Virus record (IMG/VR): IMGVR_UViG_3300043436_001797
Location: 17,818-81,817 of that record
From: a virus
DNA length: 64,000 nucleotides
Reading direction: 5' to 3' (one strand)
The translations under genes and the position numbers were made by a program. The notes under the pieces were generated by a model. The model searched no databases, was not told where the DNA came from, and saw only the letters and a program-made list of their open reading frames with translations. Shown piece by piece: positions 8,007 to 47,900 of this stretch; the stretch's first letter is position 1; every line of letters starts with the position of its first letter.

Positions 8007-8222
8007 ATGAACGAGTATAAAAATCCAATTAAAAAAATGTGGCAGCAAGCTAACCAACCCATTGTGGATGGTAACAATGTACAGCTTGCACACACAGTAG
8101 GTACAGCAGCACCTACTACAACTCCTGCTAAAGTAGGTTTGTTGTTTATTGACACTACTAACGCTGCAGTATATATTTCTACAGGAACTACTGATTCTGG
8201 TGACTGGACAGCTTTAACATAA
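8007..8222 (+). CDS. Small putative head decoration/fibre protein (71 aa)
   Basis: GTAAPTTTPAKVGLLFIDTTNAAVYISTG...W resembles the short beta-rich module of phage fibres. Its leader is nearly identical to that of the 12602 gene. Confidence 0.5.
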   Translation: MNEYKNPIKKMWQQANQPIVDGNNVQLAHTVGTAAPTTTPAKVGLLFIDTTNAAVYISTGTTDSGDWTALT

Positions 8223-8244
8223 TAACTTTTATAAACCAACAAAA

Positions 8245-14580: not shown

Positions 14581-14595
14581 TTAAACCAATATATT

Positions 14596-14739
14596 ATGTC
14601 ACAGTGTCCAAATTGCGGAGCAGCTATGAGCTGCGGATGTCAAAAGAAAGTACTTTCTAATGGTAAAATAGGATGTACTAAATGTGTTAATCAAACTTCT
14701 ACAGCAGAGGCAAAAGAAACTGAAACTAAGAAAGAATAA
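14596..14739 (+). CDS. Small Cys-rich, probably Zn-binding protein (47 aa, not in ORF track)
   Basis: MSQCPNCGAAMSCGCQKKVLSNGKIGCTKCVNQ...; TTAAACCAAT leader; stop overlaps the next ATG (TAATG). Confidence 0.7.
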   Translation: MSQCPNCGAAMSCGCQKKVLSNGKIGCTKCVNQTSTAEAKETETKKE

Positions 14740-21010: not shown

Positions 21011-24000
21011 ATGCCAATTTGTAATAATCAATATCCTACTGGAGGAACACCTGCTCCAAATCCTAGTGTTGGTACTTCAGGACCTAACGTATCTATTACA
21101 TCCGCAAATGTAGAAATAATTTATCCTACTATTATAATAAATAATAGTACTACTGGTACGCAAAAACAATGGTTTGCTGCTAATCTAGTTGGTGCAGAAG
21201 TTTTTACTCTTAATTTTTTACCAAGTGATATAAACTGGTTTGGAACACTAAGAGCAGCTAGCCCTGCAGACAATGGTATTGGTAATACCGAAGCTGCTGT
21301 TCTTAATAACACTGCATCTGCTAAATTATGTGAGTCAGGTTTTTTGTATAAACCTGATTGTATTCAAAATATTAACAATTGGTTAGCTAGTACAGCAGGG
21401 GTGGCAGCAGTGGGTGCAGGTTGGAGGGTTGCTACACAAGCAGATTTTGAGCATTTGCTTGAGGCATTAGATCCGTTATCTGATGCAAATTCTACATTTA
21501 AACTTAGAAATACATCTACATCGGGTAATGCCACTATTAATACACAATGGCTTTCTACTTCTACTGCACCACCAGCAGGTGTAACTTTAAACTACTCAGG
21601 TTTTAATGCTTTTGCTGCTGGTGCAAGAGTAATAACAACAGCAACGCCTCAAAGCGGAGGTTCGATTAATTTTAATGGAAGATTTGTAGCCTGGTGGTTA
21701 GGTCCATCAACACCTGGTGGAACAGATAATCAGTATAATGTAACTGGTTTTGCTAAAGCTTTTTATAAATCGGTATCTATCTGGAATAGAGGAGATCAAC
21801 CACAAGGTGCAACAAATCCAGCTAACTCATTAAAATTTAATATAGCAGGTAGTAGTACTAACCCAGGTTTAACCTCTGGGACTTATATTTCTAATGACCC
21901 TAATGTAGGTAACTCAATACGTTTAGTAAGAGATTGGGTTAATCCGGATTGTCCTGATCTAACAACATCAGATGCTTTAAATCCCACTCTTGTAGCTGCA
22001 GGAGCGTATGAGCCTGTTACATTTGACCAGACAGTATATCCATCTATTTGGATAGGTGCTCAAAAATGGGTAGCATCAAACCTTGTAGAAACTCTTGCAC
22101 CAGGTTTAACTCTTGTTGATGATGGTACCTGGAAAACATTAGGCGATAATTATGTACCAGCATATACTTATTGTAATATAAATACTGAGTTGTTAGATTG
22201 CAAACAAGGGTATTTATTTAATTATTCCGCAGGTGTTGCAATAAACAATTATTTAGTAGGCCAAGGTATTAATCAGAAATATAGAGTTCCTTCTAATGAT
22301 GACTTTAATGAATTAGTAGATTATTTAGGAGGTGCATCTGTAGCAGGAGGTAAACTAAAATCAAATACCCCTACTCCGACAACTTATTGGGATGCACCTA
22401 ATACTGGAGCAGATAACAGTTCTGGATTTTCAGCAATTCATAATGGGGTAGCATCAGTTAATAATACTCCTCCAATAGAGCTGGAGTTTACAAATTGTGG
22501 ACCAATTAATAGAGTTGGCGCTACTTATAGAAGTCGTGATGAAAATAGTACATTTCCAGGAAGTTCTGCACTCATAGAGTTGACTAACTCTAGCGATAAT
22601 TCTTCAATTTATGAGGTCCAGAACTATTTAGGTCATGCAATAAGATTAGTTATACCTAGTATACCAGTTACAATAGTATTTGCTGGACCGGGTACTGGTT
22701 CGGCTACAGTAACAGGTGTAGATAGCACTATAACTGATACAGGTACATCTGGATTTGTAATAAGACTTAGAAATGGGGAAGACTTAACTGTTATTGCTAC
22801 ACCAGATTCTCCATATGTAACAGGCTCTATTAATGTAACAGATGGGGTTCCTTCAGGGGTTCCTCAAACAACCCCTATTGCCGGTGGACTACAGGTTAAT
22901 GGTTTATCAGAAGCAATAACTGTAACTATTACATTTACCAATCCTCCTGCACCAGCATCATGCAATCCTTGCACTTTTAGTCAATTAAATTCGGGATTGA
23001 CATATGGTAGTGTCACAGTAAATAGTGTATGCTACCCAACTTTACAAATTGGTTCTCTTGAGGTTACTACATACAACCTTACGGTAAGAGATCTTAGTAC
23101 TTTTCTTTTTCCGGGCGTACCTTTTATTACTAATGCTGCAGGATGGGTAAGTGCGGGTTCTAGTAGTTCTGCTGCCTGTACTTTTACAAACTTTGCAAAT
23201 AATTCACTGTCTAATAGTACAAATGAAAATACTTGTGCTACAGGACTACTTTTTAATCACCATGCTATAGCTCTTATTAATGCTTATCTAAGCGCTAATA
23301 ATCCGGGATGGCGTGTACTTACAGAGTGTGATGCTAAGCATATAAAAAATAGGGTTTCAATTGATCTTTCAGTAGGATGTCCTGCAAATGGTTTAGGTGT
23401 AGGAGCTATTAACGTAGGTGGAAATGGTTTAGCAGGTAATGCATCAGATGAATGTCTTCAGAATGATGATTTCAACCCTTCTGGTTTAGGTGCTACTTTA
23501 ATGTCTGCTGGTGGCACTACTGATAATGCTGCTGCTAATAATGATTCCGGCTATACTTTAGTTAAAACAGGATATATAAATGACACCGGTAGTTTTAGTG
23601 GTCCTGTTAATTCAAATATTTGGACTAGTACTTCAGCAGATAAACAATACGCTAATGGTAGTTCTACTGTTTATGATGGTTATGCTTGGAGAGGTTTTGC
23701 AGCAGATTTAGGGAGTGGTGGAGAAACTTATATAGATCATATTCCAAATTTACCATCTTGGGGTTTTGCTCTTAGACTGTGCCAAACTATAGATACCCCC
23801 TACGATTTTACTGGTACTCATAATGTTAGTTTAGATACAGGTGTTTTGGTAGCTGGCGTACCTATATCAGGCGCTACAAGTACAATTGATTATAACAATA
23901 GTTACGGAACTTGGAGAATCAATAAGTGTAGAGATATAGTTAATAACGTTACTGCTACAGCTGGTATAAACGATGTTGCTCCAGGTTGGGATAAACTTAA

Positions 24001-27000
24001 TGGTACAACAGCTAATCCTGATACAGGTCAAATTGTTGTTAGATTTTCTGGGATACCTGCAGCACCAGGAACATATACTTGGTATCTTCCTATAGGTTGT
24101 GATATAATTCCGATCACAAGGGAAATAATTCCTGATCCTGGTTCAATAACAGATTTAATTTGTGGTGCTGCTGCATCTAGTCTTACTGGTGTTTTATTTG
24201 AAGGTGACGATGCTTCAGGTATAACCTTTACTGTAAGTTATACTGGAGGCAATGGTGGGGATTATGCTGCACAAAGTATTTTATCTACTGGAGTAGCTGG
24301 TCTTACGGCAACTCTTGCTGCAGGAAGCTTTGCTAGTGGTTCGGGAACTTTAACGTACACACTTTCAGGTACTCCTGCTGATGGCGGTACAGCATCTTTT
24401 GCTTTAAGTTTTCCTGGTCCAAATAGTACTACTGTATCCTGCACTGTTATTTTAGATGTTGAAGAAGTAATCCTAATTACATTTTTAGGATGTAACAGCG
24501 CTACATATACTCCTAATACTCCTCCTTTTTATGTCAGTACACCACTAAATGAAAACATTTCTATAGCGTATGCTGCGTCTAATAGTGGAGAATATGCAGG
24601 AGATACATTTGCATCAACAGGTCTTACAGGATTAACCCTTACTCTAAATCCAACTACTGTAACTAGTTCTGGTTCATTTACAGGAACAATAACAGGTATA
24701 GCGGGTCAAACAGGTACAGCAATTTTTACTATATGTATAGGTGGGTATAACGGACAAGGTCAGTTCTGTTGCACTTTATCAGTACCTATTGTAGAAATTC
24801 CTTCAGGAGTAGAGCAATTAGATTGTGCAAATGCTGTATTTACCGGAACTGTTTCATTTCCTGGAAGTTACGCTGCCGGAAATAATATTACTATTACTAT
24901 ACCTTACATTGGTGGAAATGGTGGTGGATATCCTTATACAGCATTTTCATCCACAGGTATAACCGGTCTTACAATGTCAGCACCTGCAGGGAACTTTGCA
25001 GGTAGTCAAACTACTCCACAAAATGGTACTATTCTTTTTACAGTAATAGGTACTCCGAGTGGAATAGGTAATGCTGTATTTGATATTGAAATTGGAGGTC
25101 AAACTTGTCAGATAGAACTACCTGTAGTAGAATTACCCGGGGATGCCAATCTAAATTGCGGAGCTGCTACTACAAGTTCTCAAGTACTTTCCGGACAATC
25201 TGTTAATGGTATAACATTGTCCATACCATATACAGGAGGTAATGGAGGAACATATGACTCTCAAATCATACAATCTACACCAGCAGGAGTTACTGCATCA
25301 TTAGCTCCTGGAACTCTTGCTGTAGGTTCTGGTGTTTTAGTACTATCTCTTACTGGTACAATGCCTGCTGGATTTATACCGATTACATTTCAGTTTGCAT
25401 TTCCAGTAGGTTCACCTGCTTGTACTATTACACTAACTCCTCCGATTGAAGATGGTACAGCAGACTTAGACTGTAACAGTTTAAGTGTTGTTGGTACAAT
25501 TACGTATCCTGATCCAATACCTGTAAACAACCCCATTATACTTTATATAAACTATACTAACAGTAATGGTGGATCATACCCTGCAGCAACATTTACTTCA
25601 GCTTTAGGTGGAGTACTTGGTTTAACTGCAACTCTTGAAGCTGGTCAGTTTGCATTAGGATTTGGACAATTACAATTAACAGTAACTGGTACTCCGCAAA
25701 GTTCCGGTACAGCATATTTTGATATTACAATAGGAGGAACAACTTGTACTTTTGATATACCTGTTGAACCACCTATCGGTGATATAGATCAGTTAAATTG
25801 TAATCCTAGTTCCATTGCTGTTACCGGAACTTTGGTAAATGGACAAGTTGCTTCAGGAGTAACATTTACAGTTCCTTATGCAGGATCTAACGGGGGCACT
25901 TATCCTGCAAATACTGCTAACTCTTTAAGTATAGTTACAGGACTTACTGCAACTTTAGCTTCAGGTATATTTAACGAACCTAATGGAACAGTTACTTACA
26001 CGGTAACAGGAACACCACTGGGTTCAGGTCCTGCTACATTTCCTATTACTGTTGCAAACCAGTCATGTACAATATTACTTACAGTAGATCCTATACCAGG
26101 GACAGCAGATTTAGACTGTGCTAATGCTACATTTAGTGCTACTCCTGTACAAGGTTTTTCTACTTCTGTAACAGGAAATATTCCTTATACCAATGGTAAC
26201 GGAGGATATTATGATACTTATACCGATACTGTAGATGGATTAACATTAACTATTAACGATGGGTATTTTAATAATGGTTCAGGATCTGTTCCATTTACTA
26301 TTCAAGGTATACCCACTGTATCAGGAACAATCACATTTACTAATATTCAGGTAGGTGACCAAACCTGTAATTTAACCATTACTGTTTCAGAACCGCCTCC
26401 TATTATTGACGATCTACTCTGTGATCAAGCGGTTATAACCGGATCATTAGTAATAAATGAAGTTGCTTCTGGTGTAACTATTACAATCCCTTACGAGGGA
26501 AGCAATGGGCAACCTTATCCTGAAGATAGTAGTAACTCTACTGGAATTACAGGATTAACTGCTACTACCCCTGCTGGTGTATTAACTGATCCTACAGGTG
26601 AATTAATATACACAGTTACAGGTACTCCGACTACTAGCGGTGTAGCAACGTTTACTATAACCATAGGCACACAGACCTGTGTTATTAGTATACCTGTAAG
26701 TCCTCCTAACTTCTTTGGTCCTGAAGAGCCCTCTCCTTGTGAAGAAGTTACTTACACGGATCCTGGTTGTGAAGTATTAACTGATACCTGTACAATTCTT
26801 TTCAATGGTACTGAAGTAGTATACACTACAATAAGTACTACTGATCCTTGTCAGGTATCTTTTCAGGTTCCTTGCGATGCTCCACCTAATGAGGTTGCTA
26901 TTGTAACTTTCTTAGATTGTGAGGATAATATAATTACAACTGAAGAATTACCTATTGGTGATAAGTTACCATCTTATCTTTCACAAACTGCAGGATGTCC

Positions 27001-28720
27001 TGGTGATGAAGTTACTTTATTAGACACAGGTTGCACATTTGCAACTAGCGTCACAAACATTCAAGTTTGCTACCCTGGATCAACAGGTTGTATTTCTATA
27101 GGTCCCGGTACACTTTTAAACTCAAGTCTTCCTTTACCTTGTTCTATTGCATTCACAATACCTGTACCTTCACCAGCACCGTTTTATCCGGTTGATGTTC
27201 AAATTGTATTTGAAGGTTCGTCAGGAGTTTTAGAACAATTTGACTTTACAGTTGAAAATTGCGCTGACACAGAAAACAGTTTTGAACCTATTGGTTGTGC
27301 ACTTCCTGGTGACGAAGTTACTTTTACTAATCCTAACTGCAACTTAGTAAGTCCAGATTTTAGTGAGCTGCTTGTAGGAGGAATTAGTGCTGCAATAGTA
27401 AGTGTTAATAATACTCCTCCATGTTCTGTAACGTTCTTGATTCCTGATGAGACAAGTTCAGGTTTACAGGAAATACAGTTTATAGACGATCTTGGTAACT
27501 TATTAGGTACTGAAGAATACTCTGTTGCCGCAGAAGGTGTTGGTTCTAATTACACTGTTACGTTTACTCCTCAAATTGACACTTGTCATAGAATATACTT
27601 CCGTACAACTCAAGAAGAGTATTGTTACTATCAAGCAGATGGACCTTTTGAAGTCGGTGTACCTGTAACAGTTACTATTGATTTGCAGGATTATGCTGAG
27701 TGTTTGGTTACTGTTCCACCGACTAGTTGTGATGATAATATAATAGTTACAGGTTACATACAACCATGCTGTACTAATGAAGATGCTCTAGATAATAGAG
27801 TAGAAATGAACTGTGTACAGTATGCTGCAACAGATTGTGGACTATACTCTGTAGTATGTAACTCATCTAATTGCGGTACGTTTACTAAATCAAACTGTTT
27901 TGCATCAGGTTGTACTGGAATAAACGATCTCACTGAATATGCATTTAGAGGTAATGCAGGGATACCTAGCAATACAGTATATGTATGTTCTGAAGGAAAT
28001 GGTGTTCAAAACACTACTAATTCCACGTACACTATAACTAAGTTGTCCTCTGTTGTAGCTAAAGCTTATGGACTAAATATACTACAAGCTTATCCTTTTC
28101 AACCTTCTACTATTTACTGGACAAATAATGCAAGTGTTGAATGGAATCCTGCCGGAACATGTTCTTTTGTCGGTGATCATGTATATGTTCCAGAAAATAC
28201 TACTACAGGTACTGTCTTAAGCGCAGTTATTTTAACAGTAGGGACTACATACGAGTTTACTTTTAGTATGTTTTCTAACTTAGCTAACATTATTAGTTTT
28301 ACTTCCGGGCTAGGTAACACCGTTTCTGTATCAAGTCCTGGTGGATCTTATCCTCCTGTTGGAACAACTTATCAAATCACAGCAGGATCTACAGGAAGAC
28401 TTTCGATTAGTATCCCTTCTGTAGGAAAAGGTACTTGTTTTCAGCTAACTGGATTAAGAGTAGTTCAAACAGGAATAAGAGCAACATGCTGCACATGTTT
28501 CGGTGCTGAGGTTATCTTAGATTTACCTGAAGATGGACCTACTTCTATAGAAGTATACTATACTCAGTGTACTGATGATGGTCCCCAGATTGCAACAACT
28601 ACACTAACAAATTCTGTAAATGTAATAAACTGCTGTACTTATGGTAGTGTGTTTCCTGTAAATAGGTTTGATGTAGATTATATAACATCACTTGTCTACT
28701 TGATTAATTCAGGTTGTTGA
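21011..28720 (+). CDS. Giant adhesin/fibre (2569 aa): three Fib_succ_major-like domains, about 8 Ig-like repeats, three IPT-like repeats
   Basis: W.A.NL / G.L(Y/F) / (W/Y)RV / N.SGF / IRLV motifs three times (about 21130-23790). About 105-aa repeats with L.C...PY.G.NGG.Y...GLTATL...GTP...G.A.F...GQTC (about 24135-26700). PGDEVT repeats downstream. Confidence 0.8.
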   Translation: MPICNNQYPTGGTPAPNPSVGTSGPNVSITSANVEIIYPTIIINNSTTGTQKQWFAANLVGAEVFTLNFLPSDINWFGTLRAASPADNGIGNTEAAVLNNTASAKLCESGFLYKPDCIQNINNWLASTAGVAAVGAGWRVATQADFEHLLEALDPLSDANSTFKLRNTSTSGNATINTQWLSTSTAPPAGVTLNYSGFNAFAAGARVITTATPQSGGSINFNGRFVAWWLGPSTPGGTDNQYNVTGFAKAFYKSVSIWNRGDQPQGATNPANSLKFNIAGSSTNPGLTSGTYISNDPNVGNSIRLVRDWVNPDCPDLTTSDALNPTLVAAGAYEPVTFDQTVYPSIWIGAQKWVASNLVETLAPGLTLVDDGTWKTLGDNYVPAYTYCNINTELLDCKQGYLFNYSAGVAINNYLVGQGINQKYRVPSNDDFNELVDYLGGASVAGGKLKSNTPTPTTYWDAPNTGADNSSGFSAIHNGVASVNNTPPIELEFTNCGPINRVGATYRSRDENSTFPGSSALIELTNSSDNSSIYEVQNYLGHAIRLVIPSIPVTIVFAGPGTGSATVTGVDSTITDTGTSGFVIRLRNGEDLTVIATPDSPYVTGSINVTDGVPSGVPQTTPIAGGLQVNGLSEAITVTITFTNPPAPASCNPCTFSQLNSGLTYGSVTVNSVCYPTLQIGSLEVTTYNLTVRDLSTFLFPGVPFITNAAGWVSAGSSSSAACTFTNFANNSLSNSTNENTCATGLLFNHHAIALINAYLSANNPGWRVLTECDAKHIKNRVSIDLSVGCPANGLGVGAINVGGNGLAGNASDECLQNDDFNPSGLGATLMSAGGTTDNAAANNDSGYTLVKTGYINDTGSFSGPVNSNIWTSTSADKQYANGSSTVYDGYAWRGFAADLGSGGETYIDHIPNLPSWGFALRLCQTIDTPYDFTGTHNVSLDTGVLVAGVPISGATSTIDYNNSYGTWRINKCRDIVNNVTATAGINDVAPGWDKLNGTTANPDTGQIVVRFSGIPAAPGTYTWYLPIGCDIIPITREIIPDPGSITDLICGAAASSLTGVLFEGDDASGITFTVSYTGGNGGDYAAQSILSTGVAGLTATLAAGSFASGSGTLTYTLSGTPADGGTASFALSFPGPNSTTVSCTVILDVEEVILITFLGCNSATYTPNTPPFYVSTPLNENISIAYAASNSGEYAGDTFASTGLTGLTLTLNPTTVTSSGSFTGTITGIAGQTGTAIFTICIGGYNGQGQFCCTLSVPIVEIPSGVEQLDCANAVFTGTVSFPGSYAAGNNITITIPYIGGNGGGYPYTAFSSTGITGLTMSAPAGNFAGSQTTPQNGTILFTVIGTPSGIGNAVFDIEIGGQTCQIELPVVELPGDANLNCGAATTSSQVLSGQSVNGITLSIPYTGGNGGTYDSQIIQSTPAGVTASLAPGTLAVGSGVLVLSLTGTMPAGFIPITFQFAFPVGSPACTITLTPPIEDGTADLDCNSLSVVGTITYPDPIPVNNPIILYINYTNSNGGSYPAATFTSALGGVLGLTATLEAGQFALGFGQLQLTVTGTPQSSGTAYFDITIGGTTCTFDIPVEPPIGDIDQLNCNPSSIAVTGTLVNGQVASGVTFTVPYAGSNGGTYPANTANSLSIVTGLTATLASGIFNEPNGTVTYTVTGTPLGSGPATFPITVANQSCTILLTVDPIPGTADLDCANATFSATPVQGFSTSVTGNIPYTNGNGGYYDTYTDTVDGLTLTINDGYFNNGSGSVPFTIQGIPTVSGTITFTNIQVGDQTCNLTITVSEPPPIIDDLLCDQAVITGSLVINEVASGVTITIPYEGSNGQPYPEDSSNSTGITGLTATTPAGVLTDPTGELIYTVTGTPTTSGVATFTITIGTQTCVISIPVSPPNFFGPEEPSPCEEVTYTDPGCEVLTDTCTILFNGTEVVYTTISTTDPCQVSFQVPCDAPPNEVAIVTFLDCEDNIITTEELPIGDKLPSYLSQTAGCPGDEVTLLDTGCTFATSVTNIQVCYPGSTGCISIGPGTLLNSSLPLPCSIAFTIPVPSPAPFYPVDVQIVFEGSSGVLEQFDFTVENCADTENSFEPIGCALPGDEVTFTNPNCNLVSPDFSELLVGGISAAIVSVNNTPPCSVTFLIPDETSSGLQEIQFIDDLGNLLGTEEYSVAAEGVGSNYTVTFTPQIDTCHRIYFRTTQEEYCYYQADGPFEVGVPVTVTIDLQDYAECLVTVPPTSCDDNIIVTGYIQPCCTNEDALDNRVEMNCVQYAATDCGLYSVVCNSSNCGTFTKSNCFASGCTGINDLTEYAFRGNAGIPSNTVYVCSEGNGVQNTTNSTYTITKLSSVVAKAYGLNILQAYPFQPSTIYWTNNASVEWNPAGTCSFVGDHVYVPENTTTGTVLSAVILTVGTTYEFTFSMFSNLANIISFTSGLGNTVSVSSPGGSYPPVGTTYQITAGSTGRLSISIPSVGKGTCFQLTGLRVVQTGIRATCCTCFGAEVILDLPEDGPTSIEVYYTQCTDDGPQIATTTLTNSVNVINCCTYGSVFPVNRFDVDYITSLVYLINSGC
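24135..26700 (+). repeat. About eight tandem ~105-aa Ig-like repeats within the giant adhesin
   Basis: Recurring cores YTGGNGGDY, YAASNSGEY, YIGGNGGGY, YTGGNGGTY, YTNSNGGSY, YAGSNGGTY, YTNGNGGYY, YEGSNGQPY, each bracketed by two Cys. Diverged at DNA level. Confidence 0.85.
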
Positions 28721-28728
28721 TAATACTG

Positions 28729-28794
28729 AGTCTAGCTTTTGTTGGTTTAAGCAAGACTGCTACAAAGAGCCTTGGGTAAAACCGAGGCTTTTTG
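28729..28794 (+). ncRNA. Candidate small structured RNA (hairpin with TTGTTGGTTT loop plus terminator)
   Basis: Stem AGTCTAGCTT/AAGCAAGACT (9 of 10 pairs). 28737-28750 is the exact reverse complement of the leader at 5035-5048, and 28737-28749 of the leader at 8232-8244. Transcription not demonstrated. Confidence 0.4.
28763..28794 (+). terminator. Rho-independent terminator after the fibre genes
   Basis: CAAAGAGCCTTGG-GTAAAA-CCGAGGCTTTTTG hairpin with U tract. Confidence 0.85.
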
Positions 28795-28795
28795 G

Positions 28796-28834
28796 TATAT
28801 TTGTTTTTATAATCGACTAAAATTTACTAAATTA
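28796..28834 (+). promoter_or_regulatory. Candidate promoter for the tail/cargo genes
   Basis: TATATTTG (TAnnTTTG) at 28796-28803 directly after the terminator, plus TTTACTAAATTATA, which also occurs near 9386-9399. Confidence 0.4.
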
Positions 28835-28838
28835 TATT

Positions 28839-29432
28839 ATGATGAGGAACTTTAGAAAACCGGATCTTGCTGCTCCCCGATTCAGACCAAAAGCTTTCAA
28901 TGTTCTAAATAAAGAACTCTGGAAAGAATTTAAGGAGAAGTACCCGAAGTATAAAGATCTTACTTACATGGACTTCAAGAAGATTATAAAGCTAAGTAAC
29001 CAGAAGTTCTGGGAAAAGGTAATCTCTTATAGAGATGGTGTTGAGTTACCTGAGAGTCTAGGTTTTATTTTTATAGGTACGTGTACATCTCAGAACCCTA
29101 AAAGAAAAAACATAAACTATGGTAAATCAATCAAGTACGGGTTTGAGGTAAGCAACAACAATCTTATTTCTGACGGAAAGCTAGCTAAGATTTTTTATAC
29201 AAACTACGCGGTTAAGTATAAAGTTAGAGATAGAGAGATCTGGACGTTTACTCCTTGTAGATCTTTTAAGAGACAGGTTGCTAAGACATATCCAGAAAAC
29301 TGGGAAAAGTATATTGAGGTTCCGGATAATCTTAAGATATCCAGATTGTATAATGAACTGATTTCTAAAGACGTAGAAAAGAAAGAAGTCTCATCAGCAA
29401 TTATAAACTATAACGAATTTGATTTAAGCTAA
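28839..29432 (+). CDS. IHF/HU-like basic protein (crAss tail module)
   Basis: Basic 197-aa protein with a helical start then GVELPESLGFIFI, like the HU/IHF beta strand. crAss-like phages carry IHF-like genes next to the tail tubular genes. Confidence 0.6.
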   Translation: MMRNFRKPDLAAPRFRPKAFNVLNKELWKEFKEKYPKYKDLTYMDFKKIIKLSNQKFWEKVISYRDGVELPESLGFIFIGTCTSQNPKRKNINYGKSIKYGFEVSNNNLISDGKLAKIFYTNYAVKYKVRDREIWTFTPCRSFKRQVAKTYPENWEKYIEVPDNLKISRLYNELISKDVEKKEVSSAIINYNEFDLS

Positions 29433-30106
29433 TGACTACAATAGGAGAGAGCATATCAAGGGTTAGAAACTTGGTAAAAGCAGCAAAGCAGGATGCTTTT
29501 ATGACTGATAGATTTATCTACAGTCTTATTGTAAAGTATGCTAAGTTGTTGATTAAGAGACAAGACGCTCTTAATGTAAGACTTAAGTTCGCAAGTCTTT
29601 TTAGAACTCTCCCTTGTGTAGAGTTAATTGAGACCGACAGAGTTGAAGCTTGTTGCGGAAGCTTACCTGACACTTGTAAGGTAATGCGCACTAAGGAAAA
29701 GATTCCAGTACCTTTTGAGGGAGCTTATGGTGCTTTTATTAGAACGGTCTCATCTATAGACGGATCAGTTGAGGTTTACAGAACTCAACCCGCTCAATTT
29801 ACATCTATGACTAAGACTACTGCTTTTAAGTACAACAAGCAGAAGTACTACTGGTATATGAATGGTTATTTATATCTACCGAACATTGAGTGGGAAAGCA
29901 TTTTGCTAGAAGGGATATTTGAACAAGACATTGCAATATTTACATGTGCTGCTGACGGTATTTGTAAAATACGCCAGAATGATATCTTAGGTATTCCTGA
30001 TGACTTGTTTGCTGAGATTGAGCAACAGGTTATGTCGCAGTTGTTGGGTACTGCACAACTTCCAACGGATATTAATATTTCTGATAAACAAAACGTTCTA
30101 AGATAA
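29432..30106 (+). CDS. Putative tail ring protein
   Basis: 224 aa; motifs LPCVELI, RTKEKIP, YYWYMNGYLY, EGIFE; synteny before the muzzle. Confidence 0.6.
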   Translation: MTTIGESISRVRNLVKAAKQDAFMTDRFIYSLIVKYAKLLIKRQDALNVRLKFASLFRTLPCVELIETDRVEACCGSLPDTCKVMRTKEKIPVPFEGAYGAFIRTVSSIDGSVEVYRTQPAQFTSMTKTTAFKYNKQKYYWYMNGYLYLPNIEWESILLEGIFEQDIAIFTCAADGICKIRQNDILGIPDDLFAEIEQQVMSQLLGTAQLPTDINISDKQNVLR

Positions 30107-31020
30107 TGGATTACAACTACACCCTGAAATACAGGACCTTTGATTCTCTTCTTGAGGATGTTAAGATGGATCTTAGAAACTTGTCAGCTGATACAAGTAT
30201 TGAACCCGGACAACTTATCAAAGTAGCGCGTAAGTGTAACTACGATTTGGGTCTTCGTATTCAAAGAAGTAGAGAGACTGTTCTTGAGATAGAAAAAGGT
30301 AAAGCTCGTCTACCTGAAGATTTTCAGGTAATGAACTTTGCTCTTATGTGCGGTAACTATGTTGTAGTAGAAGTTCCCCCACAGGGAACTAACGTTCAAG
30401 AAGTCACTCCAGGATATAGACCTTGGATAGATGCTAACCTTTGTTCTGATGTAAATGGAACGTGTCCGGAAACAACTTGTATGACTGAATGCAATCAGTC
30501 GTATAAGCTTATCCAGATGGTAAACTCAGTACGTAGAGAATATACTACTTTCTCTCCTATCACTTTTAGAAGCTCTCAGTTTATAGATGTTGATTGTCCA
30601 AACACCTGTTCACCTCGTTGGCAGAACAGAGATGAAGCGTACATCAAAGATGGTTGGGTGTTTACAAACTTTACTGACGGACATGTGTACATTAACTATC
30701 AAGCAGATATGGTTGATGATGAAGGTAATCTTATAGTACCAGATCATCCCATGTTGAATGAATACTATGAATATTCTTTGAAGAAGAGAATACTAGAAAA
30801 CCTTGTAATGGATAATGTAAACGTTACAGGTCAATATCAACTTGTATCTGCTGAACATAGAGTTGCTAGAAACGCAGCGTTTAGTATTGTGAATACTCCT
30901 AACTTCTCTGAGATGATGAAGGTGTGGGCGATGAACAGAAAAGCAATGTACTCTAAGTACTACAATATGTTTAAGAGCTACTACTACCCTCTTAATTTAC
31001 GAGTTAATAACGCTATTTAA
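30106..31020 (+). CDS. Putative tail ring/tubular protein (P22 gp4-like position)
   Basis: 304 aa; GKARLPEDF, TNFTDGHVYINY, DEGNLIVPD motifs typical of crAss tail tubular proteins; immediately before the muzzle. Confidence 0.65.
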   Translation: MDYNYTLKYRTFDSLLEDVKMDLRNLSADTSIEPGQLIKVARKCNYDLGLRIQRSRETVLEIEKGKARLPEDFQVMNFALMCGNYVVVEVPPQGTNVQEVTPGYRPWIDANLCSDVNGTCPETTCMTECNQSYKLIQMVNSVRREYTTFSPITFRSSQFIDVDCPNTCSPRWQNRDEAYIKDGWVFTNFTDGHVYINYQADMVDDEGNLIVPDHPMLNEYYEYSLKKRILENLVMDNVNVTGQYQLVSAEHRVARNAAFSIVNTPNFSEMMKVWAMNRKAMYSKYYNMFKSYYYPLNLRVNNAI

Positions 31021-31022
31021 TT

Positions 31023-34000
31023 ATGGCAAAGAAACAAGGTAATACTCCAGAATCTGGAATCAGTTCTAACTCAGGATCTTTTACCAAAGGTCTTGTAAGA
31101 GACTTTGATGAAAACTTTGATCCCGAAAGTTCATGGCCATACGCACGTAACGCTTCAAACAATTCTAAAGAAGGTGATGTTGGTGTCTTAGGTAATGAAC
31201 CATCAAACTCTGCATGCGGAGTTGCTCCCTACACAGTTATTGGTAGAATATTTTTATTCAATGCTTACTGGGCAATATTTTCTACCGATGATAGCAACTC
31301 TGAAATAGGTGTGTATGATGAGTCCCTCTGTCAATATAGAACTGTAGTTAACCAAAAATGTCTAAACTTTAGGAAACTAAATCTAGTAACAGGGGTAGCT
31401 AAAGAAAACTTTGATTGTCAGTGGGCGGTTTATTTTGCTGATGGTAGAAATCCAGACAGATATATAAACATAGGTAACCCCGCACTGTGGCCAGATACAC
31501 CATACCTTGGTAATAACTATTATCAAAATAATGTACTGTGGCCAGGTGTACAGTGGATACAAGACTGTCAAATTATAAACAGTTGTACAATATGTGAAAA
31601 TACCAACAGTTTAGATTGTGAAGAAATCAGAATCAATAAACTTGTTAATACCCCTTGTGTTAAAGTTAGCGCTAAAGAAGGTGGCGGTAACCTAGCTAAT
31701 GGTTCTTATGTTGCTTTTATAGCATACTTAGAAAATGGTCAGAAGTATGGAGACTATACATCACCCTCTAACGTACAACCTATATTTGATCACGACAATC
31801 TTGGTGGTTCAATTACTGTAGAAGTATCTAATCTTGAAAATAAGTCTTTTACTGAGTTTGAACTAGTTATTGCTGCGACAGTAAATGGGCAAACTGTAGC
31901 AAGAAGAATAGGTCAATATGCTTGTTCCGATGGACCTGTATTGGTATATCTTGATAGTATAAACGACTCGTTACCTACGGTACCTCTTGAGTTACTTCCT
32001 ATAAGATCACCATTGTATGAAACATCAGATTCTATTTTTGAAACTGGAAGCTACCTTCTTAAAATAGGTCCTCGTACAACTTTTGATTTTAACTATCAAC
32101 CACTGGCAAATCAAATTGAAGCTAAGTGGGCAATTGTAAGATATCCGTCAGATTATTACAAGAGTGTAGGTAGCAACACAGGTTATATGCGTGATGAGGT
32201 ATATTCATTTTTTATAAGATGGATTTACGCAACAGGAGAAAAATCTAAGTCATATCATATTCCTGGAAAGATTGGAGATAGTAAGGATACTACACAATCT
32301 ATAGGTATATACTCAGCAGAACTAGAATACGGTTTTGAAAAAGAAAATACAGCTACTATAACTAGTACGACTACATATTCTTTATCAGATGGTGGTGTTG
32401 TAATAGCTGAAGGTACAATGGGTTACTGGCAATCTTCTGAAAAGTATCCAGATAGAAATCCTGAGGTTTGGAATTCTAGTTATGATCCTAGAATATCAGG
32501 TACAAGTCAAACTACATGGGATCTTTGTAACCAACCTATCCGACATCATAAGATGCCGGAAGATGTTATTTCTAATGATTTAAAATATACAAGAGCTGTT
32601 ATTTTAGATTCTGCTGGTAATATTGTTCCATCACCTAAGTACACTGGAGCTACTCACATTCAGATAGTTGGTGTAAAGTTTTCAAACATTAAACCTCCTG
32701 TTTATATAGACGATGATGGAAATACTAAGGTTATTCCTGGTATTGTTGGTTATGAGATTCTTCGTGGATCACGAACAGGAAACAAGTCCATTATAGCAAA
32801 GGGTATTATAAACAATATGCGGAGCTATACTGATATTGATGATACAGAAGGTCTTTATGCAAACTATCCGTTTAATCCTGTAAAGGATATAAGTGGAACA
32901 ATTGATCCTACACTATCAATTACTCCGGTTAATGGTAATGGTAGTAATTACACCCCTGTAACAGAATCACATGTAAAGAAAAACTTTTTAACCTTTCATT
33001 CTCCGGACACTAGTTTCTATAAACCTTTCTTAGCTGTAAAAGAATTAAAACTTTATACAGAGTTAGGAAATCCTGGTAATGCAAAAGGAACATTTGAACC
33101 AGTACCCGGACATCCCAAGGAAAAACTTTTAAGCAATGTTTCATCTACAACAGCAATGATACTTGGTATAGCTGAAGCAATCTTTGCAATGAAAGGTGAA
33201 GAAGGATGGGAAGGAGAAGAATCAAGATCACTTAATATAGGTCTTGGTGGTACGATGGTTATGCCAACCCCAGGAGGAGTCTTTGGTGCACCTAGTTTGA
33301 TGTATCCAACTTTCGGTGTACCTGGTGGTAATGTGTATGAAGGACTTAAACAAGCACAGGTGCTTGGACAAACAGGTCTCAGTGCATCAGCTCAAGGATT
33401 GACAGGTGGTTTAATGTCATTAGGTGGAGCGGGTATGGTGACAGGTAATAATGCTCAGTTATTTTACATGGGCGATAAACTTGCATCAAATGGGTACGCA
33501 CTTGCAGGGGGATATATGGGACCTACAAGAAGAAGAATGCACAAAGAAGGTGTTATGTCAGGTCTTCCACTTATAGCAAATATTTTTGCGGTTGTTCCTA
33601 CATTGTATACACTAGCTACAAACGCAGCATCTAAAACAATTGACCTAATATATGCTTTTGTAAAAGCTCGTAGTTATGTCTATAGATTTATTTCCCACGG
33701 GTTTTTACATAAAGACAATTTACCGCCAGCATCCAGAAGGCATTATATAAATGATGTCGCATATTTAAATGAAGGTTTTAATATGTTTGGTGGGTATAAG
33801 ATCAATAATATTAACAGATTTAAAACTACAGTATTAACTACCGCAAATGATGTGGCGTTACCTAACATTGTAGATAATACAGGTGTAAGCATTAGCAGAA
33901 ATGTAAGTTCTAATGTTACAGCTGCTACAATGGATCCATCGCTTACAGGGAAACCGGCTAGTGCTCCTGTAGCAGAACTTATAAAAACTATATCTATAAC

Positions 34001-36284
34001 AGCATCTTGTTTTTATGCTGGTTTAAAAATTAGATTTAGAAACCAATACGGACAATTAGATCAGATTAGACAAATACCTTTACCATGTCCGCATATTGTT
34101 AATAACAATAAACCTATTCCGGATTCTGCTATTGATGCTCCAGTAGGGTCCACTGTTACTATATTTAATGCTAATTACTCAACTGATGTTTTATTTGGAG
34201 GTGACACATATATAGGCAGATACACAGAAAAGAATACTTTCTTTTATTTCTATGATTGGTTATATGGTCAACCTGATGAAACCCCATTTAATTATAGGGC
34301 TAAGTACTTGGGTTTATATCCTCGTTACTTTGCAGACTTTAGTAGATATGATATAGATGGGTTAATACCCACAATGCTGCAAAAGTTTAATCAACCTAAT
34401 ACATGGGATACACCCGCTAATCAAGTTAACTTAGAACAGGAATCTACACCCGTAGGTTTACTAGGATTAGTACGTATGGCTTTTAATAATGTATTACCTA
34501 ATTTAATTGGTAATGCAGATGATAATAGTTATAGCAGCGGCGATAATAAATTTTCATTTTCTATAAGAAGAGGTTTCATGTATCTCTTTAGCTCAGGTGT
34601 AAGGGATTTCTTTGTAGAATCTGATATTAACGTAGACCAAAGAGACTGGGGTGAACTTGATGAACAAAAACACTTTGAGGTTCTTTCTGACCTTAAAACA
34701 TTGTTTGATACTAGAATTATTAGATTTGGTAACTACTACAAGATTGACCCATCTATTTCAGTATCAAAGCTTTACTACAGTGTAGTATCTTGGGGTAACA
34801 TGCAAGATAGAGACTATAATCCTATGGTATCTGCTCTATGTTATAAGTACTTACCTAACAGAGTTATCTACTCGTTACCTACAGTTCTTGAAGGAAAGAA
34901 AGATGGTTGGAGAATATTCTTACCAAACAACTATAGAGACTTTAAGTCTAAGGTTACTGCTATTAGACCTATAGGTAAGAACGGAGCATTGATGCTCTTT
35001 GATAGAGATAGTCCCGTACAGATTCAGGGTACCGAAACTCTTGAGTCTGATATGGGAACTAAGATTACAGTAGGTGATGGTGCACTGTTTAATAAACCGT
35101 TACAAGCACTTACAAACACAGACCAATCTTATGAGTATGGATCTTGTCAAGATAAGTTTTCAATTCTAAATACACCAGCAGGTATCTACTGGGTATCTCA
35201 GTCTCTCGGAAAAATATTTTCAATAGGAAGCGGACTAGAAGAGATATCTGCTTCTGGTATGCGTTGGTGGTTTAGTAAGTTTTTACCTTACAGAATACTA
35301 GAGGATTTTCCAAACTTTGAAGCTACAGATAATCCGGTAATTGGTGTAGGTTGTCAAGCTGTTTATGATAACGACTTCTTGATGATTTACTTTACTAAGA
35401 AGGACTATGAGCTTAGAAAAGATTTACCTGCGGGAATCAGTCTTACATATGTTGGTGGTGTAGATTTTATCTTGAACACAGGTGGTTCTTCGGGATCTTC
35501 TGGAGATAAAAATAATACAAGACCTAATGCTGCTAAAATTAAGTTAGGAGATCCTAATTACTTTAACGATGTATCATGGACAATATCATATGACCCTAAG
35601 TCAAAAGCTTGGATCTCTTTCCACGATTGGCATCCGACAATGATGATCCCTAGTAACCAGAACTTTATAACTATTAATGATAATACTTTCTGGAGACATA
35701 ATAGTCGCACTGATAGTTTCTGTAACTATTATGGGGTTGATTATCCATTCCAGGTAGAGTATGTGGTAGATACAGGACAGACAGTAAATACTTTAAAGAG
35801 TATAGAATACTTACTTGAGTCATATGTATACGATATAGATGGTATTGATAGATTCCAGCTTTTAGACTTTAACTTTGATGAACTTATTGTATATAACTCT
35901 GAACAAGTTTCTGGACAACTTAATCTCAATATGGCACCTAAGGATAATCCTTTTGCTAGATTGAATTATCCTGCTGTAACTGGTGCGGGGATAAATATTA
36001 TGTACGAGAAAGTAGAGCAGAAGTTTAGAGTAAATCAGTTCTGGGACGTTACTGCAAATAGAGGCGAGTATGATGTAAATATTCAAAGACCGATTTGGTT
36101 AACTGGATGGGATGGATATAAGCGATCTTTGAATCCTGCTAACTTGAATTATGCTAAGTCAGTATTTGAAAGAAAGAAGTTTAGACATTACTACAACAAC
36201 GTTCTGTTTACCAGAAAGGTTTCGGGTAATGCTAAAATGCTAATGAAGATATCTAACAACAAAAACTTGCTGTCACCGCGATGA
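31023..36284 (+). CDS. Tail stabilization/muzzle protein
   Basis: 1753 aa; N-terminal F.KGL..D...ARNA, GYMRDEVYSF, FGGDTYI, C-terminal WTISY...WISFHDW.P; position before the cargo genes. Confidence 0.75.
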   Translation: MAKKQGNTPESGISSNSGSFTKGLVRDFDENFDPESSWPYARNASNNSKEGDVGVLGNEPSNSACGVAPYTVIGRIFLFNAYWAIFSTDDSNSEIGVYDESLCQYRTVVNQKCLNFRKLNLVTGVAKENFDCQWAVYFADGRNPDRYINIGNPALWPDTPYLGNNYYQNNVLWPGVQWIQDCQIINSCTICENTNSLDCEEIRINKLVNTPCVKVSAKEGGGNLANGSYVAFIAYLENGQKYGDYTSPSNVQPIFDHDNLGGSITVEVSNLENKSFTEFELVIAATVNGQTVARRIGQYACSDGPVLVYLDSINDSLPTVPLELLPIRSPLYETSDSIFETGSYLLKIGPRTTFDFNYQPLANQIEAKWAIVRYPSDYYKSVGSNTGYMRDEVYSFFIRWIYATGEKSKSYHIPGKIGDSKDTTQSIGIYSAELEYGFEKENTATITSTTTYSLSDGGVVIAEGTMGYWQSSEKYPDRNPEVWNSSYDPRISGTSQTTWDLCNQPIRHHKMPEDVISNDLKYTRAVILDSAGNIVPSPKYTGATHIQIVGVKFSNIKPPVYIDDDGNTKVIPGIVGYEILRGSRTGNKSIIAKGIINNMRSYTDIDDTEGLYANYPFNPVKDISGTIDPTLSITPVNGNGSNYTPVTESHVKKNFLTFHSPDTSFYKPFLAVKELKLYTELGNPGNAKGTFEPVPGHPKEKLLSNVSSTTAMILGIAEAIFAMKGEEGWEGEESRSLNIGLGGTMVMPTPGGVFGAPSLMYPTFGVPGGNVYEGLKQAQVLGQTGLSASAQGLTGGLMSLGGAGMVTGNNAQLFYMGDKLASNGYALAGGYMGPTRRRMHKEGVMSGLPLIANIFAVVPTLYTLATNAASKTIDLIYAFVKARSYVYRFISHGFLHKDNLPPASRRHYINDVAYLNEGFNMFGGYKINNINRFKTTVLTTANDVALPNIVDNTGVSISRNVSSNVTAATMDPSLTGKPASAPVAELIKTISITASCFYAGLKIRFRNQYGQLDQIRQIPLPCPHIVNNNKPIPDSAIDAPVGSTVTIFNANYSTDVLFGGDTYIGRYTEKNTFFYFYDWLYGQPDETPFNYRAKYLGLYPRYFADFSRYDIDGLIPTMLQKFNQPNTWDTPANQVNLEQESTPVGLLGLVRMAFNNVLPNLIGNADDNSYSSGDNKFSFSIRRGFMYLFSSGVRDFFVESDINVDQRDWGELDEQKHFEVLSDLKTLFDTRIIRFGNYYKIDPSISVSKLYYSVVSWGNMQDRDYNPMVSALCYKYLPNRVIYSLPTVLEGKKDGWRIFLPNNYRDFKSKVTAIRPIGKNGALMLFDRDSPVQIQGTETLESDMGTKITVGDGALFNKPLQALTNTDQSYEYGSCQDKFSILNTPAGIYWVSQSLGKIFSIGSGLEEISASGMRWWFSKFLPYRILEDFPNFEATDNPVIGVGCQAVYDNDFLMIYFTKKDYELRKDLPAGISLTYVGGVDFILNTGGSSGSSGDKNNTRPNAAKIKLGDPNYFNDVSWTISYDPKSKAWISFHDWHPTMMIPSNQNFITINDNTFWRHNSRTDSFCNYYGVDYPFQVEYVVDTGQTVNTLKSIEYLLESYVYDIDGIDRFQLLDFNFDELIVYNSEQVSGQLNLNMAPKDNPFARLNYPAVTGAGINIMYEKVEQKFRVNQFWDVTANRGEYDVNIQRPIWLTGWDGYKRSLNPANLNYAKSVFERKKFRHYYNNVLFTRKVSGNAKMLMKISNNKNLLSPR

Positions 36285-44902: not shown

Positions 44903-47900
44903 ATGAAAGTTAGAATCACAAAAGCTCCTAAACTTAGAAAGTATCAAACGGATGTTACACCTGGTCAAGTTATGCCTGCTGCAACACCGTCAGACTATAA
45001 CAACTATAGAGATGCCAGCTGGTTTCAACCATGGGAAGGAGTAGATATGAGTCAGTTTCCCAATGGCATAGATCCAATGGGAGGAGAGTTTACTACGGGT
45101 AAACAGAGATCTCTATATTATACCATAAGAGATGGGAAACAAGAACTCTACCCACCACATCAGAAAGTTGCTCATGCAATGGATCACAGGGGAATCTCAG
45201 GTATACGTTTTTATCAACGTCCTGGTGATGATGGAGCTGGCAGCAATGGTGGTGATGCAGGATATGGTGACGATGCTGAAATGGGAGATTCTTATATGGC
45301 AGATCCTTATGCAGAAAAGAATGCGTATAGGGCTAAAATGCGGGATGAGTACAATCAATTAAGTACAGAACCGCAAGAAGGTTTTGAGACATGGTTGCAT
45401 AATAAGGGAGATTATCTAAATTATTCGGGGTTATCCGGTGATTCAAATCAAACAAGTTTAGAGCAGAAAGATCAAGGTCTTACTGATTATAGAACTGGTA
45501 TGCCGGATTTTAAGTCTGGAAATGGTAGTGGTGCTGGTAGTGGTTTTGGTAATTCTGGTGGCACCGGTTCTACTGGTGGTGCTGGTTCTGGTCCTGCTGG
45601 TCCTACTGGTACTGGTTCTAGTAGCGGTGGTGGTGGTGATTCAGGATCTGTTAATACTATTGGTGGAGGAGGAGGGGGAGGTGATTTGAAATCTGCTGGT
45701 ATGCCGCAAGATCAAGGTTTTCACGGAGTTGTAAAAGAAAAAGGTCGGTCAAAGCTCGGTAAGTTCATTAGAGGTTTAGGACCTCAAAAGGGAATGGATG
45801 CTTACATAAACAGACAAAATGCTAAAGACTTTGTTACGGGATTTGCTGAGTATAAAGGTAAGGTTGATATGGATAAGGAAGCTGTCAAAGGTTTCCATAT
45901 GTCGCAACCTATTGCCGCATCTACCCAGGGTACCTTTGATCCCAACAGCATGAACAACTTTACTCCTGGTATGCTAAATACAGTACCGTCTACAGGAGAT
46001 TTTGCAATGGCACCTAATATGCCTATGGGTGCATATGGTGGTCAGTTTATGGCATATGGTGGTAGAGTGTTTAATCAGGTAGCACCAAATGCTTTACCCG
46101 ATAGAACATCTGAACCTAGAATAGCAGTATCAAACACACTGCAACCAGTACCTAGAGAGCTTGCTAATATCGAAGCAGAGAAAGATGAGACTATCTACTT
46201 CTTAAACAATGGTGGTCTTCCTGCTCATTATAAAATTGGTGGTCAACCTCACAGCAAGGGAGGAACTCCTTTGAATGTTCCCGAAGATAGTTTTGTATTT
46301 AGTAAAGCGCTGAAGATTAAGGATAAAAGACTGTTTCCTTATTTCGATGTAACTAAACCTACCAGCTTCTCAGACATTGCTAAGAAGTATGACATAAATA
46401 AATTTAGAAAGATACTAGCTGACCCGGATACAGACAAGCTGCAAAGAGAAACTGCAGAGAAAATGATTGCTAACTACAACCTTAAGTTGGGTATGTTAGC
46501 TTTAGCACAAGAATCTACAAAAGGATTTCCACAAGGTTTACCTATGATAGCTGCACCGTTTACTGCGGTTAATGCTATTGATCCGGAAATGATTTTACCT
46601 ACGCCACCTCAGTCTGCTGAGATGCCGGAAGAACAATTTATGGAACAAGAGATGCCCGCTTATAAATTCGGAGGAGCTATGAGAGTTAGAATTAAATCTT
46701 TACCTAGATATCAGTCAGATCTTGCTGGTGCTAGTGTTGCTGATGATATGATGTCAGATGCTGGTTTATCTGACCAGACTTACGTACAAACCCCACCAGC
46801 AAATATACCCCCACCTCCACCTGTTGCTGTTGTTACACCTGCTACACCAGCAGCACCTCCTGCAGCAGCAACTGCAGCTACTCCTCCACCTACTATTGTG
46901 GTGAATGGTGTTACGATAGATACAAAGACTAATAAACCTGTAGCTAAGTCTGCTCCCGCTGCTAGTGGTAAGAAAGCAGCTAAAAGTGCTGCGGGTACAT
47001 TTAATTTTGATGTAGATGTTATGGAAGGTAATCCTGACTTTTGGCAGGGTTATAATGATTTGGTCGCAGCTGGTACTATTAAACCAGAACTAGCTATAGG
47101 TTTTGAAGATGCTAGTGTTCGTCAGCGAGAGAGTAAGCAAGGTCGTAGACCAGGTACTGCAAATATATATGGTGATAGAGATATTCATAAAGGTTCTCTT
47201 TATGAGGACTTTAAGAAAAGACAGGCGTGGTATTTTCAAAATAAGAAAAACTGGGATCCTGAAAATAAAGCAGATGTAGAAGATTTTCAAAGAGAGTATT
47301 GTAAAAAAGCTGCAGAGTATGGTATGAAGGGTTGTTACTTTAATACCAAGGATGTAAAAGACTCTAAAGGTAGAATTATACAAGGGACTACGTTTGACGG
47401 TCTGTTTGGTGAGCACACTTTTAATGCTCCAGGATTTAATAAAGCTGAAGCAAAACCAGAACCTCAACCACAACCCCAACCAGAACCAGAAAAAAAACCA
47501 GAACCTATCAAGGTTAATCCTTTAGATATACCAGAGGATTATTCTCGTAGAAGCGGTTATTTCCCTCAGGATCTTATAAACCTTTCTGCAGCTTTAGCTC
47601 AAAGAATTACTGTACCTGATACATGGTATGCTCCTTTACAGTTTAAAGGTGTAGATCCTGCGTATTTGGTACCAGACTATAGTCCAATTATGGAAGCTGC
47701 TAATATTAGCACTCAGGGTGTTAATGCTTATGGTTCTCGTCAAAGTGCAGATGCTTCACTTGCTCTTATTCAAGGTAAATCAGCAAGACCTGCAGCTGAA
47801 CATAATCTAGCAGTTGCTAATGCTAATGCTGGTATTTACAACAATGCTCAGCAGATTAACGCACAGATAGCAAATCAAAATGCTATGTACAATAATCAGT

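Follow-up and report, generated by a model that had tools for sequence, protein, structure and literature searches.

What is the hairpin that closes the fibre gene of this phage, and does its loop address the leaders of genes that lie many kilobases upstream? The window, by which we mean the whole stretch of 64,000 nucleotides analysed here, comprises bases 17818–81817 of the 81.8-kb IMG/VR record IMGVR_UViG_3300043436_001797, which is rated 68% complete. DNA matches to this sequence come from lake and freshwater metagenomes, and around the locus no match to cultured phages was found at the DNA level. Every long ORF in the window is encoded on the + strand, where the features described below also lie unless stated otherwise. 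PHROG and Pfam searches identify a portal (2185–4947), a major head protein (6306–7934), virion proteins (29432–31020) and the crAss 'muzzle' protein (31023–36284, PF25731), in addition to a 2569-aa fibre-like gene from the ORF list (21011–28720; Pfam Fib_succ_major, E = 1.7e-20). Given these matches, the source is a crAss-related phage. A host from the Bacteroidota is likely. The 407-aa gene that follows the portal (5053–6276), which the sequence-only reading of this DNA had called a scaffold gene, has no PHROG or Pfam match.

The hairpin resides in the 3′ UTR of the fibre-like gene, at positions 28729–28758, and starts 9 nt past the stop codon (28720). Its arms, AGTCTAGCTT and AAGCAAGACT, form a stem of ten positions, nine of which are paired and one of which is an A·A mismatch, and they enclose the loop TTGTTGGTTT (28739–28748). 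It is followed after 4 nt by a terminator (28763–28794), recognized by both folding and a terminator scan, whose 13-pair stem contains six G–C pairs and runs into a T-run, as is typical of intrinsic (Rho-independent) terminators. When the 91 nt at 28715–28805 are folded as RNA, precisely these two structures emerge, the hairpin and the 13-pair terminator, with −30.5 kcal/mol and z = −4.2; none of 200 shuffled sequences equalled this (0/200). Coordinates and fold thus agree with the initial description of a 9/10-bp stem with a terminator directly behind it. The motif is apparently uncatalogued: a cmscan of positions 27500–30000 against Rfam 15, with E-values up to 10, returned no family match, the C4 antisense RNA (RF01695) included, and the sub-threshold matches to SpF25 (18.9 bits at a cut-off of 48) and sroH are chance matches. 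Likewise, we found no published description of this hairpin, of Leptolyngbya phage Lbo-JY46 (see below) or of small RNAs of crAss-like phages, and the parts of the phi14:2 preprint available to us (10.1101/2020.03.07.982082) report no such element.

Directly downstream of the hairpin-terminator unit lies a 197-aa gene from the ORF list (28839–29432), for which PHROG, Pfam and related searches yielded no assignable family. It is preceded by a promoter-like stretch (28796–28838), which is made up of TATATTTG at 28796–28803 and an AT-rich motif ahead of the ATG at 28839, has a similar counterpart ahead of the homologous gene in relatives, and probably restarts transcription of the ring/muzzle/cargo module. 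The AT-rich part, a conserved TTTTTGTAAATTATAATGTAG-like motif (28805–28838 in the window), is found 5–20 nt ahead of the ATG of the 197-aa homologues and also precedes the gene after the portal (5006–5030). It may represent the middle/late promoter type that is described, in the parts available to us, in the phi14:2 preprint (10.1101/2020.03.07.982082).

The original interest in the hairpin came from its complementarity to the leaders of head-module genes, and each of the reported matches is present in the sequence. Positions 28737–28750 are the exact reverse complement of TTAAACCAACAAAA (5035–5048), which ends 4 nt ahead of the ATG at 5053; TAAACCAACAAAA (8232–8244) matches at 13 of 13 positions and abuts the ATG at 8245, where a 339-aa gene starts; and the variant TTAAACCAAT (14581–14590) matches over 10 nt with one G:U pair, 5 nt ahead of the ATG of a 47-aa Cys-rich ORF (14596). 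A fourth box, GCTTAAACCAAC, is located outside the window, directly ahead of the ATG of the ORF G000:C1:14189–14560. Between the capsid gene and the gene at 8245, we further noticed a 71-codon ORF (8008–8222) that is absent from the ORF list. A strong terminator after the capsid gene (7952–7976) separates some of the box-bearing genes from the hairpin. As the small ORF precedes it, the box at 8232–8244 is intercistronic, and as the terminator intervenes, not all box-bearing genes would share a transcript with the hairpin.

Within this one genome, such matches are hardly above chance. If 66-nt segments of the 81.8-kb record are compared with the rest of it, 4.5% find a reverse-complement match of 14 nt or longer and 15.6% one of 13 nt or longer, and the box sequence AAACCAAC occurs six times in the window where 2.5 occurrences are expected, a number reached by 6 of 100 shuffles. 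The 14-nt match in this genome alone is therefore weak evidence, and the case rests on conservation in relatives.

We collected these relatives in two ways. The first set consists of 80 related loci fetched with the 197-aa protein (41–97% identity), and the second of 79 largely new loci, for which an alignment of the ring-like protein encoded downstream served as the query. By eye, a hairpin that combines the loop GTTTGTTGGTTT with a different stem can be seen ahead of the gene in about 20 loci of the first set, again with a terminator behind it. An alignment of 84-nt stretches with MAFFT and RNAalifold misaligned the 3′ arms and missed this first hairpin, so we used a model-based alignment in its place. 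The covariance model was built on four sequences and rebuilt on fifteen (R2); it gives + strand matches at 69 of the 80 loci of the first set, plus the window, and at 58 of the 79 loci of the second. Among the 11 loci of the first set that lack a match, five end less than 600 nt upstream, three (L030, L075 and L080) show the hairpin by eye, one gave a doubtful match (L083), and the remaining two are L065 and L069. In total, the hairpin thus persists in well over 100 stretches of related phage DNA. Several weak model matches and the one to cr10_1 were rejected as coding sequence or wrong-strand matches.

The stem varies freely in sequence while its pairing is preserved. In the alignments fitted to the model, one for each set, the paired cells amount to 92.8% and 94.7%. 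Covariation in related phages, which had been proposed as a check on the hairpin, is found throughout the stem: all seven pairs show compensatory changes with both sides altered, on both alignments. The covariation scores of 0.82 and 0.76 compare with 0.26 and 0.31 after shuffling, where none of 500 replicates reaches the observed value, and with 0.04–0.16 when the partners are slid against each other; model-fitted alignments lean towards the structure of the model, a bias that the slid controls share. After removal of five likely false rows from each alignment, the wobble cells of the stem number 75 G·U and 0 A·C, and it is therefore the sense strand that folds, as RNA. The loop, by contrast with the varying stem, reads UUUGUUGGUUU / TTTGTTGGTTT nearly invariantly over about 70 distinct sequences, across which the neighbouring protein drops to 41% identity. 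Judged by these sequence changes, the hairpin that closes the head-fibre block is certainly a conserved RNA element of the sense strand, and a functional one.

Its surroundings are equally constant. For the following counts, all '−' rows and three non-syntenic '+' rows (window 46751, L067 2608 and L083 443) were removed. A terminator-like hairpin follows within 0–15 nt in all 96 distinct contexts of relatives (96/96; two positives among control windows). The distance to the upstream stop codon could be determined for 72 loci; in 70 of them, the hairpin starts 2–13 nt past it, which places it in the 3′ UTR of the fibre gene. A promoter-like motif that could give the hairpin its own transcript is no commoner upstream of it, at the end of the fibre gene, than in control windows. 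Small RNAs derived from 3′ UTRs are characterized by that location, by a terminator shared with the mRNA and by the lack of a promoter of their own, and the hairpin agrees with them on these points. Complete genomes contain a single strong copy each.

Three further observations concern this neighbourhood. In many relatives (L016–L039, L043 and others), an extra gene of about 1.3 kb is inserted between the hairpin-terminator unit and the homologue of the 197-aa gene, and because of this insertion the hairpin lies about 1.4 kb upstream of that homologue in most matched loci; the constant company of the hairpin is the fibre gene, not the 197-aa gene. A candidate second copy on the + strand of the window (46751–46776, inside the ORF 44903–48313), with a GTCAGAT / ATCTGAC stem, the loop GCUGGUUU (GCTGGTTT) and 20 bits with the hairpin model, lies in coding sequence, yielded no counterpart in other genomes and is probably a chance match. 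Finally, a pseudoknot between the loop and a CAACAA linker after the stem is confined to an L006-like subgroup and not conserved.

We turn to the other side of the proposed interaction, the leaders. Across 12 related genomes, ACCAAC occurs in the 30 nt ahead of 50 of 1089 called ORFs, where 7.9 are expected, and most commonly starts at −11 to −9. In a set of 16 genomes, it ranks at the top of the 20 words of composition A3C3 (64 of 1655 upstream regions, versus 4–23 for the non-overlapping words), and AAACCAAC is found 49 times, versus at most 11 for non-overlapping words. Genes were called in a crude way, with ATG as the only start codon, a minimum of 45 aa and a greedy choice, so these counts carry some error. 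The box is borne by the same orthologues, namely the gene after the portal, whose leader carries it in relatives as at 5053, the gene after the capsid gene and the small Cys-rich gene. It is often tandem, with two or three copies; the leader of the 8245 orthologue has one to three. Ahead of the small Cys-rich ORF (14596–14739 in the window, with an MxxCxNC-type start), it is kept both in the main clade and in phi4:1. Box-bearing starts are concentrated 3–34 kb upstream of the hairpin on the same strand: they make up 48 of 598 starts upstream on its strand, versus 4 of 257 in the downstream part and 12 of 801 on the opposite strand. As the genomes are related, nominal p-values exaggerate this contrast. 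AAACCAAC is, in sum, an element specific to leaders, held at a fixed position ahead of a few structural genes.

This genome-wide count relative to start codons, which the sequence-only reading had put forward as a way to check its idea, therefore favours a true leader signal with a peak about 10 nt before the ATG. In line with its remark that Bacteroidota largely lack Shine-Dalgarno pairing, SD-like words are scarce in the leaders of this genome, with one among 61 upstream regions. In G015, G017 and G018 alone (loci L221–L239), we also observed AAAACCAACA at 2–8 nt before a strong terminator on the strand opposite the hairpin; this would give an RNA 3′ end with the sense box, for which pairing with the hairpin loop is conceivable.

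Is the box, then, the pairing partner of the loop? The loop core GUUGGUUU and the most specific of the leader words complement each other exactly, and a conserved seed facing a conserved target site, as looked for in base-pairing regulators, is found in GUUGGUUU and AAACCAAC. Complementary runs of at least 9 nt number 28 in the leaders, compared with 9.8 ± 3.9 for shuffled loops, none of which (0/300) reaches 28. For shorter words, the pooled counts are similar to those of shuffled loops, with 101 versus 119 for 7-mers and 45 versus 35 ± 8 for 8-mers, and much of the apparent targeting at 7–8 nt is therefore a matter of composition, U/G-rich against A-rich. With composition matched, we estimate the chance that the top leader word happens to complement the loop at about 1 in 56, which is not negligible. 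Ranking of targets by duplex energy at −8 kcal/mol did not discriminate, and exact-word counts were used in its place.

If loop and leaders interact, they might be expected to change together, and here the picture is mixed. Among loops with G before GUUGG, three of five cases have leaders with C after ACCAAC, versus 3 of 25 for U loops. On the other side, A-variant loops have matching leaders in none of four cases (0/4); the loop of G015 reads UUUAGUUGG, yet its leaders have ACCAACA; that of G028 reads UUUAUUGG, yet its leaders have AAAACCAAA and AAAACCAAC; and the loop variants of G012 and G009 are likewise not mirrored by their leaders. The co-variation of loop and leader on which the sequence-only reading had proposed to test itself is thus hinted at by the G variants and not seen in the A variants or in these four genomes. 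Relatives that keep the leaders and lose the hairpin, the case that it had named as speaking against it, do not occur among those compared; those that keep the leaders also keep the hairpin. Presence and absence of the two go together, and this may reflect a single event in which both were gained.

Cultured outgroups extend this comparison. Single-protein queries from phi4:1 and Lbo-JY46 returned only phi4:1 itself or nothing, and the alignment query with the ring protein returned members of the main clade only. In Cellulophaga phage phi4:1, whose capsid protein is 29% identical in its N-terminal part, the hairpin is syntenic: it has the loop UUUUUGGUUUUU / TTTTTGGTTTTT and a terminator, starts 2 nt past the stop codon and lies ahead of the homologue of the ring protein. 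Its top leader word of composition A4C2 is AACCAA (10/182), and the G/C pair is absent from both loop and leader. In phi14:2 and crAss001, there is no match to the hairpin model, and the leader word is found in 1 of 112 and 0 of 106 upstream regions, respectively.

The closest cultured phage by capsid protein (28% identity) is Leptolyngbya phage Lbo-JY46 (PP438436.1; loci L247, L248 and L252–L258), which has a cyanobacterial host and shares both gene order and hairpin with the lineage of the window. Its hairpin keeps UUUGUUGGUUG / TTTGTTGGTTG in a seven-pair A–U stem with a terminator. ACCAAC, on the other hand, lies within 45 nt upstream of none of its 158 called ORFs (0/158), and AACCAA is not enriched (4/157); its leaders read AAACAAC. 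As this hairpin exists without ACCAAC leaders, the GG of its loop must be conserved for some other reason. Uniquely, the Lbo-JY46 hairpin also contains GUUGUUUA / GTTGTTTA, the complement of its own leader word TAAACAAC, which is a single anecdote. In relatives of Lbo-JY46, the hairpin (e.g. with the loop TTTTGTTGGTTTTT) is accompanied by AAAACCAA in the leaders of the same two orthologues. Together, the G-variant loops, the GUUGUUUA/TAAACAAC pair of Lbo-JY46 and phi4:1 provide hints of matched changes in loop and leader. Since the cultured hairpin carriers are split between a Bacteroidota host (phi4:1) and a cyanobacterium (Lbo-JY46), the Bacteroidota host range assumed for this lineage may be too narrow.

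The best explanation for these findings, which we put forward tentatively and as quite possibly wrong, is that the hairpin is a putative 3′-UTR antisense element that pairs with the leaders of a few structural genes. It is a single-copy hairpin in the 3′ UTR that closes the head-to-fibre late block, with a terminator at once after it. The loop UUUGUUGGUUU, with its core GUUGGUUU, would pair with the AAACCAAC box about 5–12 nt ahead of the start codons of upstream genes on the same strand, i.e. the genes after the portal and after the capsid gene, the small Cys-rich gene and a few others. As the box occupies the place of a Shine-Dalgarno sequence, and with it the expected landing site of the ribosome, the simplest outcome of pairing would be repression: ribosome loading would be blocked, and with the build-up of late messages the box-bearing genes would be turned down. 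Such an effect could be exerted in cis, by the hairpin of a long transcript, or in trans, by a stable 3′ fragment made up of hairpin and terminator. That the RNAs meet, in which direction the effect goes and whether it is exerted in cis or in trans is what we infer from sequence. The earlier proposal of a small RNA that pairs with the leaders from a 3′ UTR thus stands in part: the conserved sense-strand RNA hairpin, its 3′-UTR position and the specific box support it, while the lack of a clear co-change of loop and leaders, the compositional nature of the 7–8-nt matches and a Lbo-JY46 hairpin without ACCAAC leaders speak against it.

The main rival, which we consider somewhat doubtful, is that the hairpin is the binding site of a protein that reads the loop, be it a regulator of the phage, a nuclease involved in processing or a factor of the host. 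Such a protein would govern how the message decays, is processed or is read through at the adjacent terminator, and the complementarity to the leaders would be incidental or secondary. The invariance of the loop over large distances, even in Lbo-JY46 with its 28% identical capsid protein and no ACCAAC leaders, is better accounted for by a slowly evolving protein partner than by RNA partners that drift together, and the failure of the leaders to track the loop variants of G015 and G028, the compositional explanation for short complementarities and the single copy at a module boundary beside a terminator all point the same way. However, no candidate RNA-binding protein emerged: the 197-aa neighbour could not be assigned to a family, and many relatives have a further gene between it and the hairpin. 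Moreover, a protein site leaves unexplained why the most specific leader word should be the exact complement of the loop core, and why hairpin and leader word are present or absent together.

A bolder form of the pairing idea, which we judge unlikely, is that the AAACCAAC box is a phage-specific ribosome-loading signal that replaces the Shine-Dalgarno sequence in a host with scarcely any use for one, with the 3′-terminal hairpin as its dedicated anti-box, which would titrate or circularize the messages of chosen assembly genes.

Two-hairpin 3′ ends are common, and the element could also be a passive second stem that protects the 3′ end from exonucleases or aids termination, with no sequence-specific partner. 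The terminator, always at a distance of 0–15 nt, and the position at the end of a long operon are in keeping with such a role, but it has no need of an invariant 11-nt loop on a stem whose sequence varies freely, and we regard it as decidedly unlikely.

Most improbable of all is that the element acts as DNA, either as a duplex site bound by a protein in both orientations, which the sequence-only reading had offered as its alternative, or as an extruded hairpin that starts a virion RNA polymerase or replication: a duplex site needs no covarying flanking stem, the 75 G·U against 0 A·C cells indicate one folded strand with RNA-like wobble, the element sits mid-genome in the late structural block, away from early genes and terminal repeats, and the leader boxes keep their distance to start codons, not to promoters, and are in part intercistronic. 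What favours action as DNA is the virion polymerase of the crAss-like phage phi14:2, which, according to the parts of the preprint available to us, transcribes single-stranded DNA efficiently (10.1101/2020.03.07.982082), the promoter-like box about 60 nt downstream of the motif, and a related repeat, TGTGTTGTTTAAT, which occurs five times in a divergent intergenic region of the same genome. This region (G000:C1:5700–6150, upstream of the window) contains five direct TGTGTTGTTTAAT-like copies, one CCTGTTGGTTTCG and G+C-rich runs; the repeat is one G apart from the hairpin loop, and the array may be an origin or an early-promoter array.

If the bolder reading of box and anti-box, judged unlikely above, were true, the anti-box would be made only once the late operon of 20–30 kb has been transcribed to its end, and would set the stoichiometry or timing of assembly genes in a widespread aquatic, crAss-related lineage. 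We know of no virulent phage that regulates its own late genes by base-pairing RNAs. The analysis also bears on how translation starts without Shine-Dalgarno sequences in Bacteroidota and their phages, and it supplies a strongly supported RNA motif, a defined leader box and two cultured phage-host pairs that carry the hairpin (phi4:1 and Lbo-JY46). Even without pairing, the invariant loop would mark the junction of the head-fibre and ring/muzzle/cargo modules as a site of conserved recognition, with a partner worth finding.

Among known systems, the closest in layout are CpxQ, SroC and DapZ of enterobacteria, base-pairing small RNAs that are derived from 3′ UTRs and share the terminator of their parental message. 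Like them, the hairpin comes directly after a stop codon, without a detectable promoter motif, and places a conserved seed, complementary to translation-initiation regions, before the terminator of the mRNA. Unlike in these RNAs, the putative seed is presented in a hairpin loop, where they have an unpaired stretch, and the element is carried by a phage, whose own late genes are its predicted targets. To our knowledge, the likely host group, the Bacteroidota, lacks Hfq. Loops that present an antisense to ribosome-binding regions are known from c4 of P1/P7 (RF01695) and from CopA/CopT. As with c4, a phage would regulate its own genes by a loop-borne antisense, which is a prediction in our case; the differences from c4 and CopA are the missing RF01695 match, one loop in place of two, and a 3′ UTR in place of a processed leader. 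In the boxB/nut sites of lambdoid phages, which lie close to promoters in more than one copy per genome and depend on an N-type protein, we find the same combination of a small hairpin with a fixed loop, a freely varying stem and nearby terminators; our element differs in being a single copy at the end of an operon, directly before the terminator, and in these respects it is not a nut/boxB site.

Pairing between a 3′ UTR and a ribosome-loading region has a precedent in the icaR mRNA of Staphylococcus aureus, whose 3′ UTR, in the parts of the report available to us, pairs with the region of that same mRNA where ribosomes bind (PMC3868564). Both cases involve a short 3′-UTR motif complementary to an upstream ribosome-loading region, with a block of initiation that is predicted here; in that account, icaR uses an anti-Shine-Dalgarno motif on a monocistronic message and is a substrate of RNase III, whereas our box is not a Shine-Dalgarno sequence, and its several bearers lie 3–34 kb upstream with an internal terminator in between. 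If the host belongs to the Bacteroidota, there is also a parallel to GibS and other small RNAs of Bacteroides thetaiotaomicron, in that base-pairing regulation would operate in a phylum with few Shine-Dalgarno sequences; compared by its description in the accessible parts of that report, GibS is a 145-nt host RNA with an intergenic gene of its own, whereas the element described here measures about 66 nt, is phage-borne and lies in a 3′ UTR (PMC7366714). Itself a member of no catalogued family, the hairpin would act by a mechanism that resembles known ones: that of small RNAs from 3′ UTRs, the pairing of icaR and the loop-seeded antisense RNAs of phages.
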